Assembly: GCA_944391005.1 (NCBI GenBank)
Contig: CALXSB010000015.1
Span: 1-44,437 of the forward strand
Direction: 5' to 3'
Length of the DNA stretch: 44,437 nucleotides
DNA from: an uncultured Rickettsiales bacterium
Lineage (GTDB): Bacteria > Pseudomonadota > Alphaproteobacteria > Rickettsiales > UBA1997
Shown here: positions 21,479 through 25,656 of the stretch, piece by piece
How the letters are laid out: the number at the start of each line of letters is the position of its first letter
Numbering within the stretch: the stretch's first letter is position 1
Made by a program: the position numbers and the translations under genes
Notes under the pieces: model-generated
Told to the model about the DNA's origin: nothing
What the model saw: only the letters and a program-made list of their open reading frames with translations
Database searches by the model: none

Positions 21479-23134
21479 TTATATTTCTCTAATTTTATTT
21501 CTTATATAATCAACAATATCTGTAATAACTTTCGGATTATTTTTATCTGCAGCGCCTCCCATAGCAAACCATGGTTGTCCGCCGCCGCCATTACCGCCGG
21601 CTATTTCAACTAATTTTTTAATTATTTCATTTGCTTTAATCTTATCATTTAAATCTCTTGAAACACCCAAAATTATTGTTAATTTTCCATCAAATTTAGT
21701 AATGCACATTAATATTGATTTGTCATTATATTTTTTATTTTGAAAATCAATGAATGTTCCCTTGACATCTTTAGGGTTTGCGTCCTTTAAAAGAGTATAG
21801 GCAAACATTACGCCATCATTTTCTTCTGTGAATGTCATACTAGCTATTTTAGACTTTTTCATATTGTCCAATTGTTTTTTAAAGCTTTTATATTCTTCAC
21901 TGACTGTTTTAATTTTATCAACTAATGAATTAGTATCTATTTGCAAAATATCATTAATTTCATAAACAATATCTTGAAATTTATTCATATATTTAATAGC
22001 TTCCAAACCTGTTAAAGCTTCAATTCTTCTGACGCCAGATGAAACAGACTCTTCGCTGACAATTTTAAATAAACCTATTTCTCCAGTTTTAAAAACATGA
22101 GTTCCGCCGCATAATTCAACAGAACAAACAGATTTTAGAGACGAATTGTTCAAATCATTAAGACCTTCATTAACTGCTTCTATTGAATTTTTGTCAATAT
22201 TTTGTTTATCTTTTTTAATATCATCATAAGACTTTTCACCCATGAATAAGACTCTAACTTCATCTTCATATTTTTCATTAAATAAAGCCATTGCACCACA
22301 TTTTTTAGCCTCTTCAATTGGCATTATTCTAGTTTCTACGGCTGTGTTTTTAAAAATTAATTCGTTTACTGTATTTTCAATTTCTCTTATTTGTTCTTTA
22401 GTTATTGGCTTATTTAGAGTAAAATCAAATCTTAATCTAAACTCATCAACAGCAGATCCCTTTTGAACCAATGTTTCACCAAACATTTTTCTCAAAGCAT
22501 ACTGCAGCAAATGCGTTGCCGAATGGTTCGCCCTTATTTTATTTCTTCTTTCAGTATTTATTGATAGATTAAGAAAATCGCCAACCTTCAAGCTTCCGCT
22601 TTCAAGGCTTGCCTTATGCAAAAAGTAGTTTGAAAATGGTCTTTTAGTATCTAAAATTTCAACCGTTGAAAAAGGCAAAGGTATAACACCATTTTCATTT
22701 ATTTGAATAGCAAGTCCAGTATCTCCAACTTGTCCCCCACATTCACCATAAAATGGAGTTGTATCAACAAAAAACTCAAACTTGTCGCCAGCTTTAACTT
22801 TGTTAACTTCTTTCCCATCTTTAATTATGGCAAGAATTTTTCCCATTGCCGTATTTTTTTCATATCCAACGAATTTTGTTGGTGCGATTTTCTCTTTTAT
22901 ATCAAAATAAATTTTGCTATTTCTTACATCGCCGCTGCCGGACCAATTTTCTTTTGCTCTTCTTTTTTGTTCTGCCATAGCTTCTTCAAACTCTTTAACA
23001 TTTACTTCAATTCCTTTTTCTTTAAGAATTGATTGGGTTAAATCAAGTGGAAATCCATAGGTATCATACAATGTAAAAGCTACCTTTCCACTAAACAATG
23101 GTTTGTTTGAACTATTTTTTAAATTTTTATTCAT
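21479..23134 (-). CDS. alaS: Alanyl-tRNA synthetase, C-terminal part (second tRNA-recognition helix, editing domain, C-Ala)
   Basis: AF.[54 protein letters not shown].GGG. Has its own SD (GAGGG) 5 nt before the ATG. Confidence 0.93.
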   Translation of the reverse strand: [551 protein letters not shown]

Positions 23135-23148
23135 TTTTGCCCTCTTTT

Positions 23149-23694
23149 TTATTCTCTAAAATTATCATTAAACATACTATAACAAACTAAATCCTTATAT
23201 TTTCCTTCTTTAAACGCTTCTTTTTTCCTAATATATTCAAGTTTAAAATTATTTTTTTCAGCAACTTTTCTAGAGCCAATATTATCTTCCAAAGCTTGAA
23301 TTATTATTTTCATAATATTTATTTCGTTAAAAGCGAAATTGCATAGCAATTTAGTTGCTTCAGTAGCTATTCCTCTACCCCAATAATCCTCACCAAGCCA
23401 ATAGCCTATTTCAGCTATATGTTTCGCTGATATTCTTTTATTTCGCATTAAAGAAATACAGCCAACAGCTTCACCATCAACATCTATAATAAAATTAATA
23501 TCAGCGTCTTTGTCTGTTTTTTCCTTATCAAACATTTCAATAAAATTTTCATAATCCTTGTCCGTATAGGGAAATTCAAGGGAAATTTTATTTAAAATTT
23601 TTTTGTTATTTATATTCCCAATAACACTTTCCTTGTCCTCAATCGGTCTTAAATCCCTTAAAATAAATTTGCTTCCAATTATTTCTTTTTTCAT
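23149..23694 (-). CDS. GNAT N-acetyltransferase, RimJ/RimL family (likely start ATG 23694)
   Basis: AEIGYWL...YWGRGIATEA, N..SRKVAEKN.F. Confidence 0.9.
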   Translation of the reverse strand: MKKEIIGSKFILRDLRPIEDKESVIGNINNKKILNKISLEFPYTDKDYENFIEMFDKEKTDKDADINFIIDVDGEAVGCISLMRNKRISAKHIAEIGYWLGEDYWGRGIATEATKLLCNFAFNEINIMKIIIQALEDNIGSRKVAEKNNFKLEYIRKKEAFKEGKYKDLVCYSMFNDNFRE

Positions 23695-23695
23695 T

Positions 23696-23989
23696 TTATT
23701 TATATTCAACCTTTTTTAAATCATTCTTTATTGCATTAAAAAATTCTTTTGAAATTCTATTAATCTCAACTATATCAACATCTATTGGTATAATGCTCTC
23801 CTCAAAATCGCTTCTTAATTCAGCCATATCAACACCGTTTAAATCACCATCTATTGCTAAGTCTAAATCAGAATATTGTTTAAAATTTCCAACACTCCTT
23901 GACCCAAAAACATAAACATTTTGACCTTTTAAGTGTTTTTGCAGTATTTCTTTTACAATTTTTAAATATTTTTCTTCTAATCCAAACAT
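23696..23989 (-). CDS. Minimal nucleotidyltransferase (MNT, HI0073-like antitoxin)
   Basis: VYVFGSR..G....SDLDLAI (GS-x10-DxD) and VDIV; 97 aa. Confidence 0.92.
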   Translation of the reverse strand: MFGLEEKYLKIVKEILQKHLKGQNVYVFGSRSVGNFKQYSDLDLAIDGDLNGVDMAELRSDFEESIIPIDVDIVEINRISKEFFNAIKNDLKKVEYK

Positions 23990-24378: not shown

Positions 24379-24401
24379 AATTATTTTACCAATATTATTT
24401 T

Positions 24402-24461
24402 CCCTCACCAAACGAACTACAAGCAAAGCTTTTGTTCATTTGTCTCCCCTCAAGTGGGGAG
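24402..24461. repeat. GC-rich REP-like palindromic element
   Basis: ccctcacc-[aaacgaac..aagc-aaa-gctt..gttcattt]-gt-[ctcccc-tcaagt-ggggag]: a nested hairpin plus an adjacent GC hairpin in AT-rich context. Confidence 0.6.
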
Positions 24462-24479
24462 CAATTTTTCGTTAAAACT

Positions 24480-24534
24480 TATTTTTAATTTTTAATTTCA
24501 TACAATTCTTAATTCTTTATTCTTCATTCTTAAT
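24480..24534 (-). repeat. Degenerate heptamer tandem repeat at the end of alaS-N
   Basis: Minus strand gATTAAG AATGAAG AATAAAG AATTAAG AATT...AATTAAA AATTAAA AATAA; four good units at 24504-24531. Confidence 0.75.
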
Positions 24535-25656
24535 CCCATTTTCTCTATAATATTTCTCAATCTCTTCATCAAGTATTCTCAACCCCTTATCAAGCGTTTG
24601 TCTAAACTTAATTTCTTCAGTTTCCATAGTTTCCATTATAAAATCTTCTCTCTCTTTAAGTTCCGTATAGTGTTCTCCCATTAAGTCTGTCAACCTTGGG
24701 ACGAGCCTAAACATTGATGGTTGATTTATGCCGAATTGATGTATATATAGCATAGCACGTCTTAGCAATCTCCTTAAAACGTATCCTCTTCCCTCATTTG
24801 ACGGCAAAACACCATCGGCAATTAAAAAAGATGTAGCCCTTAGATGATCAGCAATTACTCTATGCTGTAAAATAGCATCTTCATTACCAAAAAGTCCAAC
24901 AGAATTTCTAATTAAATCTTGAAATAGATCAATATCAAAGTTGTTATGTTTGCCCTGCACAACAGACGCTATTCTCTCAAGTCCCATTCCGGTATCAATA
25001 TTCTTTTTTTCAAGCGGAGTCATGCTTCCATCGGCATGTTTTAAAAATACCTCAAATACAACATTCCATATTTCAACATATCTATCTCCATCTTCATCGG
25101 GAGTTCCAGGCTTGCCTCCCCACACTTCAGGTCCGTAGTCATAAAATATTTCAGTGCAAGGACCAGCTGGTCCAACCTCACCCATTGACCAAAAGTTATC
25201 ATCAGTAGTAATTTTTATAATTCTATCATCCGGTAATTTTGCAATATCTTTCCATAGCTGATATGCCTCATCATCTGTATGATAAACCGTAGCCAATAAT
25301 TTTTCGGACGGCAAATTTAAATCATTAACTAAAAAATCCCATGACCACTTTATAGCATCTTTTTTAAAATAATCTCCAATTGAAAAATTGCCAAGCATTT
25401 CAAAAAATGTATGATGTCTTGCAGTTTTTCCAACATTTTCAATATCATTTGTTCTAATGCACTTTTGACAACTAGCCATTCTTTTTGATGGCGGAGTTTC
25501 AAGCCCTAAATAATAATTTTTTAAAGGAACCATGCCAGCAACAGTAAACATCAAGCTTGGATCGTTAGGAACTAACGATGATGATGGCAAAATCTTATGT
25601 TTTTTATCTGCAAAAAATTTTAAGTATTTTTCACGAATTTCATTTAAAGTTAACAT
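24517..25656 (-). CDS. alaS: Alanyl-tRNA synthetase, N-terminal catalytic part
   Basis: FTVAGMVPLK, QKCIR.ND, RHHTFFEMLGNFS, GP.GPCTEI, IDTGMGLER, IADHLR, PSNEGRGYVLRR; ends after F.QTLDKGL.IL. Confidence 0.95.
   Translation of the reverse strand: MLTLNEIREKYLKFFADKKHKILPSSSLVPNDPSLMFTVAGMVPLKNYYLGLETPPSKRMASCQKCIRTNDIENVGKTARHHTFFEMLGNFSIGDYFKKDAIKWSWDFLVNDLNLPSEKLLATVYHTDDEAYQLWKDIAKLPDDRIIKITTDDNFWSMGEVGPAGPCTEIFYDYGPEVWGGKPGTPDEDGDRYVEIWNVVFEVFLKHADGSMTPLEKKNIDTGMGLERIASVVQGKHNNFDIDLFQDLIRNSVGLFGNEDAILQHRVIADHLRATSFLIADGVLPSNEGRGYVLRRLLRRAMLYIHQFGINQPSMFRLVPRLTDLMGEHYTELKEREDFIMETMETEEIKFRQTLDKGLRILDEEIEKYYRENGIKNEE

Follow-up and report, generated by a model that had tools for sequence, protein, structure and literature searches.

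Split alanyl-tRNA synthetase genes flank a HEPN-MNT-GNAT cassette in an uncultured Rickettsiales bacterium

Alanyl-tRNA synthetase (AlaRS) is described, in passages of one article, as the synthetase with one prototype architecture throughout biology, the split enzyme of Nanoarchaeum equitans being the noted exception (PMC10036535). As passages of a second article report, the N. equitans enzyme is made of an alpha chain (NEQ547) and a beta chain (NEQ211), which together exhibit strong activity specific for the G3:U70 pair; the alpha chain resembles the inactive 368N fragment of E. coli AlaRS, and the equivalent of the YDTYG motif is located in beta (PMC11392972). A passage of the AARS Online article states that fissed AlaRS isoforms exist (PMC11580382). 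A two-gene class II enzyme of another specificity is glycyl-tRNA synthetase (GlyRS, encoded by the GlyQ/GlyS pair), an alpha2beta2 assembly with a catalytic subunit akin to the AlaRS core, according to the abstract of a preprint (bioRxiv 10.1101/2023.05.29.542759). In the literature that we searched (titles, abstracts and passages), a natural split of AlaRS is described only for Nanoarchaeota, and the matching passages on alaS of endosymbionts mention the gene only as lost. Here we describe a 44,437-nucleotide stretch of DNA from an uncultured Rickettsiales bacterium (contig CALXSB010000015.1 of assembly GCA_944391005.1; hereafter referred to as the window), in which the AlaRS gene is present as two genes, alaS-N and alaS-C, with a cassette of HEPN, MNT (minimal nucleotidyltransferase) and GNAT genes between them. 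From the comparisons presented below, we consider it likely that the window encodes a working AlaRS composed of two polypeptides, that the fission is old, and that the cassette is a secondary, lineage-specific insertion.

The two genes, alaS-N (24517..25656, minus strand; 379 amino acids, C-terminus ...EEIEKYYRENGIKNEE) and alaS-C (21479..23134, minus strand; 551 amino acids), are full-length open reading frames (ORFs), found where the preliminary description of the window had placed the two parts of a split alaS; they take the place of the usual one-chain bacterial form of about 870–900 residues (858–912 in the intact enzymes of relatives). The gap between them, 1382 nucleotides (previously put at about 1.4 kb), contains the HEPN, MNT and GNAT genes, all three of which gave Pfam matches, and the five ORFs in 25656..21479 share the minus strand. 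A Shine-Dalgarno sequence of its own, GAGGG (23140..23144, minus strand), lies 5 nucleotides before the ATG of alaS-C, as had been noted.

In Pfam searches, alaS-N matched positions 1–385 of the 552 positions of PF01411 (504.9 bits), and alaS-C matched positions 370–552 of the same family (140.1 bits) as well as tRNA_SAD (55.8 bits) and DHHA1 (35.4 bits); the two halves together account for all 552 positions. Alignment with intact relatives showed that the AlaRS domain content is complete over the two chains, with no segment lost and none doubled, in agreement with the preliminary description. The break is confined to a short surface loop, at which some 10 residues are added to the end of the N half as a tail and some 11 to the start of the C half as a head. 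alaS-N aligns with residues 5–384 of the E. coli AlaRS441 chain, and alaS-C begins at the position of Archaeoglobus fulgidus AlaRS residue 446, four before Asp450, just ahead of the YD(S/T)xG motif. Passages of PMC11392972 put the alpha/beta cut of N. equitans at this same place. The elements that recognize G3:U70 are found on separate chains, as had been proposed: Asn287 of PSNEGRG in the N half and Asp24 of YDTYG near the start of the C half. The motifs of both halves proved to be intact; nine split lineages show no variation in the PSNEGRG, YDTYG, HSATH-type and CGGTH columns, and the residues of the editing-domain zinc motifs HxxxH and CxxxH (H204, H208, C342 and H346) are invariant in nine sequences.

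To place this arrangement among its relatives, we surveyed 40 relatives, among them eight species genomes (G001–G008) of the same genus, g1, of which G000, the genome of the window, is the ninth. In all eight other g1 species genomes, the AlaRS pieces meet at Pfam position about 380, and the loop is cut in eight of the nine (G000 and seven others). The same cut was found outside g1 in G020 (genus g13) and G042 (genus g4), in whose congeners (G049, G011 and G054) the gene is intact and the loop short and canonical. G002, which is 98% identical to G000, has the same cassette arrangement. In G003–G008, G020 and G042, the halves are on different contigs, amid housekeeping genes; the C half follows a gene that we take, from its N-terminus, to be trpS in G003 and G004, and genes that we likewise take to be tpiA-ridA-like in G005, G007 and G008. 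ORFs that resemble transposase fragments, judging from their N-termini, adjoin the N half in G003 (L105 3414-3977) and the C half in G006 (L112 2593-3774), and they might relate to how the halves dispersed. The preliminary description had pointed to relatives as a place where the same breakpoint might be found with different cargo; the breakpoint was indeed found, and different cargo between the halves was not, the halves being unlinked in G003–G008.

The remaining g1 genome, G001, has a single AlaRS ORF of 947 amino acids (L103 3942..6785, minus strand) with about 28 extra residues in the loop that is cut elsewhere. The last 12 or so codons of this linker resemble the heads of the relatives' C halves, and its GC-richer middle matches nothing with which it was compared. 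The one-chain gene of G001 may be a re-fusion or a pre-fission intermediate. No extra intact alaS was found beside the halves in any g1 genome searched.

The two-piece form is represented widely among deposited proteins. In a protein search restricted to 208–664 residues, the best 69 of the 120 listed clusters (P0001–P0069) are 344–382 residues long and 60–100% identical, and all 69 end in the same loop; the closest to the window's N half after P0001, P0002–P0005, are 82–90% identical, some of them come from contigs of up to 288 kb, and one is named only "alanine--tRNA ligase [Rickettsiales bacterium]". The best 150 matches of a search among representatives (50% clustering) were mostly full-length AlaRS of other bacteria, two of them being 386 and 391 residues long. 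A metagenome scan with the N half yielded 80 loci, all of them ordinary AlaRS of 55–59% identity, and no close cassette-free adjacent pair. The EKYY tail was considered as a marker of the split form and dropped because other split lineages end in KYL, KWE, KFI or KFL and the intact G011 has EKFL. These findings concern annotation as well: the proteins are deposited simply as alanine--tRNA ligase, and pipelines may score such halves as partial genes or pseudogenes.

The cassette begins with the HEPN gene, whose longest ORF is 23977..24426 (minus strand) from a TTG at 24426; its likely start is the ATG at 24378 (23977..24378, 133 amino acids), because homologues align from residue 16. The start of the MNT gene (23696..23989, minus strand; 97 amino acids) overlaps the HEPN stop by 13 nucleotides. 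The GNAT gene (longest ORF 23149..23709, minus strand) likely starts at the ATG at 23694 (23149..23694, 181 amino acids), which abuts the MNT stop, and 14 nucleotides separate its stop from the ATG of alaS-C. Because the genes overlap or abut and the last gap is only 14 nucleotides, it is very likely, as judged from this layout, that the cassette lies inside one transcription unit; the earlier view that the passengers are embedded in an essential transcription unit is upheld at that strength.

The HEPN protein matched PF08780 (117.8 bits) and a HepT-like family (29 bits) in Pfam, and its score with TIGR01987 (94.8 bits, cut-off 55.8) assigns it to the HI0074 family; its score with the HepT_toxin equivalog was 27.8 bits against a cut-off of 60. 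It has an R-x4-H motif (RNITSH), and we regard it as an HI0074-family nucleotidyltransferase substrate-binding protein and a putative RNase toxin. The MNT protein matched PF18765 (43.3 bits) and PF01909 (38.9 bits), has a GS...DLD motif, scored 40.3 bits with the MntA_antitoxin equivalog (cut-off 60), and may be the partner of the HEPN protein or its antitoxin. The GNAT protein is of the RimJ/RimL/SpeG-like Acetyltransf_3 type (PF13302, 90.3 bits), with every NCBIfam match below its cut-off. The HEPN and MNT genes are similar to the HI0073/HI0074 and HepT/MntA (type VII) systems in forming an overlapping pair, in the TIGR01987 assignment, in the R-x4-H and GS...DxD motifs and in occurring at varying loci. 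Unlike in HepT/MntA, both equivalog scores are below cut-off, HEPN precedes MNT, and a GNAT gene is appended; toxicity is putative.

Among 16 loci that hold the halves of nine relatives, the cassette proteins matched only the locus of G002 (L104). At other loci, HEPN-MNT pairs 72% and 59% identical to that of the window are found in G001 and G006, respectively, and more distant pairs in G057 (L152 1504..3366, directly upstream of pheS) and G066. The locus in G006 (L150 1501..2764) has the HEPN-MNT pair followed by an overlapping GNAT-like gene, the same three-gene order with a different acetyltransferase, and GNAT orthologues of 54–55% identity occur at yet other loci in G003 and G006. No repeats or target duplication were found around the cassette, the short BLAST matches of the spacer being low-complexity A/T repeats, and the sequences on either side of the HEPN-MNT modules of G001 and G006 have nothing in common with the window. 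These distributions suggest that the cassette is a secondary, lineage-specific insertion of a module found elsewhere in relatives.

We then considered the order of events. A tree was built with IQ-TREE from 28 of the 43 available rows, with four of the nine rows of a second type of cut (type-2; see below) and six of the 16 outgroup rows kept and with split halves joined by X spacers; G012 was left out for its in-frame stop. The split G042 is sister to the intact G011 (support 93/97) and the split G020 is sister to the intact G049 (100/100), and the GTDB genus codes agree with both pairs. In the free tree, the intact G001 is nested among the split g1 genomes (87/85). The loop-cut state is scattered on the tree, where at least four changes are needed, and a tree in which the split g1 rows and G020 were held together was rejected (p 5.8e-39). 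The loop thus seems either to have been cut several times independently or to have been cut and then re-fused. At the protein level, G042 and G020 become more similar to the split forms of g1 within about 60–80 residues of the break. The C heads of G005, G008 and G020 begin with the same 12 nucleotides, one codon of which is the rare ACG; this hints at a common descent.

Judging from the ends of the halves, the split is older than the presence of the cassette in the window, because the G000 tail (EKYYRENGIK...) and the G000 head resemble, at most positions, those of the cassette-free G005, G007 and G008. The likeliest history is one in which N and C genes were adjacent with a short spacer and the module was inserted later. 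The preliminary description had instead proposed that the split was created by insertion, and this proposal is not supported: the cassette is present only in G000 and G002, whereas G003–G008, G020 and G042 have the breakpoint without it, and related HEPN-MNT modules occupy other loci in G001 and G006. In its strongest version, a recent insertion of the cassette into the loop DNA of an intact alaS would have made both genes in this lineage, which we consider rather unlikely. Only with the cassette present do the halves lie next to each other, in order and in the same orientation; extra DNA is tolerated in the loop (about 28 residues in G001 and about 25 in the C fragment of G014); the four or more state changes on the tree make repeated independent cuts plausible; and the intact G001 is close to this lineage. 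All of these fit a recent insertion. The match of the G000 tail and head with those of genomes whose halves are unlinked is, however, unexpected from an independent recent cut, and this similarity spans the whole genus, yet the synonymous distance (dS) between G000 and G002 is about 0.1. The absence of the cassette from all other split genomes examined besides G002, and the lack of a target duplication and of shared cassette flanks, likewise argue against it.

In the two-polypeptide enzyme that we propose, AlaS-N carries the class II catalytic core together with the initial part of the helical tRNA-recognition domain, which includes the Asn, and AlaS-C carries the remainder of that domain, which includes the Asp, along with the beta-barrel, the editing domain and C-Ala. 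By analogy with the N. equitans alpha and beta chains, the halves would associate non-covalently, re-forming the helical recognition domain, and the complex would charge and proofread canonical G3:U70 tRNA-Ala. The fission would predate the divergence of genus g1 or would have arisen repeatedly at a permissive loop within the family; in most lineages the halves lie at unlinked loci, and those of G000 and G002 are still, or again, adjacent. The cassette is probably co-transcribed, in which case transcription reading through from the cassette or from alaS-N would be needed for the expression of alaS-C. A single tRNA-Ala(UGC) gene, with a G3:U70 wobble pair, A73 and an encoded CCA, is present in the genome, on contig C36.

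When the N half was modeled in complex with residues 1–200 of the C half, the predicted ipSAE score was 0.52, as compared with 0.00 for the best of three controls; the runs agreed in at least 49% of contacts, and the partner pLDDT was at least 75. In the benchmark, the ipSAE mark was passed by 58 of 80 solved complexes and by two of 110 mismatched pairs, but passes at 0.60 or below were obtained with only seven of the 80 solved complexes and with both of the passing mismatches. As to the heterodimeric bacterial AlaRS of the preliminary description, a selected two-polypeptide enzyme with no intact copy found stands, and the heterodimer is well supported, if predicted rather than proven.

An alternative that we regard as improbable is that no stable enzyme is formed, AlaS-N functioning as a solo mini-AlaRS and AlaS-C as an AlaX-like trans-editing and tRNA-binding factor. 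The unlinked halves of most relatives and the weak support from the complex prediction would be in keeping with such independent proteins, as would the report, in passages of the N. equitans study, that alpha alone is weakly active and G3:U70-independent (PMC11392972). Passages of the same study, which cite earlier work, also report, however, that the E. coli 368N fragment cannot charge tRNA-Ala and that residues 369–442, including Asp400, are required (PMC11392972). Moreover, the YDTYG found right at the start of the C halves does not vary in any of them, which fits a recognition part kept for aminoacylation, and the tRNA-Ala of the genome retains G3:U70.

We estimated the selection on the two halves from the ratio of nonsynonymous to synonymous substitutions (dN/dS; Nei-Gojobori). 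Between G000 and G002, for which dS is only about 0.1, dN/dS was 0.057 for the N half and 0.10 for the C half; the other pairs gave 0.02–0.16 for the N half and 0.06–0.29 for the C half, the distant pairs being saturated (dS >1). Both halves evolve under purifying selection; the decay that the preliminary description would have expected to see as a dN/dS near 1 is not what these values indicate. The junctions also have assembly support. A 1907-nucleotide Logan contig of run X1 is identical to window 22883-24789 (0 mismatches) and runs across both junctions, and separate Logan contigs of run X2 bridge each junction; X1 and X2 are public gut-metagenome runs, and X1 may be the window's source sample, so that it stands for an independent assembler and not for independent data. 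A Logan joint from 21638 to 25727 was disregarded, one of its sides being 22 (<30) and in low-complexity DNA.

The possibility that alaS is a decaying pseudogene of an endosymbiont-like genome, its function being supplied by the host or by an intact copy in the unassembled 9%, seems to us very improbable. Gene fragmentation is common in Rickettsiales, and the genome (1.49 Mb in 156 contigs) is incomplete (91.4%), reduced and rich in AT, with about 28% GC in this region. Against decay, the ORFs are full length, the catalytic and editing motifs are invariant, dN/dS is 0.02–0.29, many species and the 69 protein clusters preserve the two-piece form, and no g1 genome searched has an intact copy beside the halves; Pfam and tblastn searches of the 91.4%-complete assembly, likewise, found no alaS beside the two pieces, which settles for this assembly the question of an intact copy elsewhere. 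We give almost no credence to a rejoining of the parts into one chain by an intron, a split intein or ribosomal bypass, which has the adjacency of the halves in the window in its favor and nothing more, since no Rfam family, hence no group I or II intron, was found in the window or in the 23000-24700 stretch, the tail (about 10 residues) and head (about 11 residues) contain no intein blocks and would be much too short to serve as the parts of a split intein, most relatives have the two AlaRS genes on separate contigs, and three intact protein genes occupy the gap.

Several points weigh against the reading that we prefer, an old fission giving a working two-polypeptide enzyme with a later cassette. 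A tree in which the eight split g1 rows were held as one clade was not rejected (AU test, p 0.148), so that within g1 a single fission with G001 as sister is possible; the adjacency in G000 and G002 could then be ancestral, and a cassette-like insertion the original cause of the cut. An older insertion of this kind is conceivable. Third-position identity near the junction is at the saturated background (about 55–65%), so that shared descent or recombination is not separable from convergence there. The complex prediction argues weakly for the association of the halves, and its pass may stem from the model's memory of intact AlaRS structures. An intact alaS in the missing part of the 91%-complete genome is conceivable, and the case is known from DNA sequence, the listed sequencing runs including none of RNA.

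The arrangement in the window can now be compared with the described systems. As in the Nanoarchaeota, to the extent that passages of PMC11392972 describe their split AlaRS, there are two genes, cut between the Asn-bearing segment and the segment with the Asp position, and most relatives resemble N. equitans in having unlinked halves. The Asp is kept here, whereas the residue at its position in N. equitans is Ile; unlike in the Nanoarchaeota, the halves in the window are adjacent with a cassette between them, and the bacterial form is known from genes alone. Bacterial AlaRS came out as the best matches in PDB and database searches, and the tree places the split genes inside an alphaproteobacterial family with intact sisters; an enzyme of bacterial type whose nearest relatives are alphaproteobacterial points to an origin independent of the Nanoarchaeota split. 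The window is a bacterial, independently derived member of a known arrangement, plus a passenger cassette. The mini-AlaRS of Tupanvirus, as presented in passages of PMC10036535, is another natural departure from the uniform AlaRS prototype; here all of the domains are kept, over two chains.

A second cut was found in the same family. In ten other genera, AlaRS is cut after the catalytic core (type-2), between the ...DNYxTDxF... helix and YKIIADHLRS, into pieces of about 262 and 610–680 amino acids that are far apart or on different contigs; we examined this form in G010, G012, G014, G016, G017, G019 and G021-G024 (loci L119-L137). Fragment-sized best matches only were obtained for 97 of the 98 genomes of these genera with a match. 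One genome, G082 (contigs C175, C16 and C5; L161-L164), has a type-2 pair and, at a contig end, an intact-like partial AlaRS, which may reflect either a further gene copy or faulty binning (contamination 3%). The type-2 rows form one clade (support 100), and their dN/dS is 0.07–0.37, with dS saturated. The type-2 C fragment of G012 (L122 from 3698, plus strand) has an in-frame TAA at codon 170, which could represent a third cut, a pseudogene or an assembly error. That of G014 (L124) has an insertion of about 25 residues exactly at the loop of the cut seen in the window (type-1), which suggests that this loop tolerates extra sequence.

Like GlyQ/GlyS, the window has a two-gene class II synthetase, and the type-2 cut, which separates a core of about 262 residues from tRNA recognition, mimics the GlyRS layout. 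Unlike in GlyRS, the cut of the window is about 115 residues further on, inside the recognition domain, and whereas the GlyRS alpha and beta genes are ancient separate genes and usually adjacent, the split here is derived from a fused ancestor. Tentatively, and with somewhat more doubt than confidence, we suggest a broader reading in which a whole uncultured Rickettsiales family has abandoned the one-chain AlaRS repeatedly at two permissive loops: the Nanoarchaeota loop, with at least four gains or reversals and a possible re-fusion in G001, and the post-core, GlyRS-like loop, cut in roughly a hundred species genomes. In that case, the window would represent a stage in which the halves are still neighbors and a selfish HEPN-MNT-GNAT module sits in the spacer, riding on, and maybe gating, an essential half-gene.

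An independent bacterial cut at the same loop as in the Nanoarchaeota, made several times or with reversals, would mark this loop as a general fault line of the fold. The relatives offer natural, diverse alpha/beta pairs for testing how Asn and Asp cooperate in G3:U70 recognition when they are on separate chains, and the type-2 cut is relevant to the proposal that AlaRS and bacterial GlyRS share an origin. The cassette provides a concrete case of a toxin-antitoxin-like module between the halves of an essential gene.

The spacer that follows the alaS-N stop (24379..24516, minus strand; 138 nucleotides) contains two adjacent hairpins. Its predicted fold has a minimum free energy of -26.4 kcal/mol (z -3.0; 1 of 200 shuffles was equally good), and the first hairpin, with a GC-rich stem of 6 base pairs, occurs once in the 1.49-Mb genome. 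No U-tract was found on the gene strand of the 24379-24516 spacer, where the sole terminator-like match is on the opposite strand. A promoter scan gave 33 promoter-like sites, as compared with 26.3 (standard deviation 5.0) expected. Elsewhere in the window, alaS-C is followed by pheS, and an ORF of 292 amino acids (18964-19842, plus strand) has a weak match to zeta/PezT-like P-loop kinases (54 bits, cut-off 470); its end overlaps the start of the ORF 19811-20257, which we take, from its sequence, to be tsaE.

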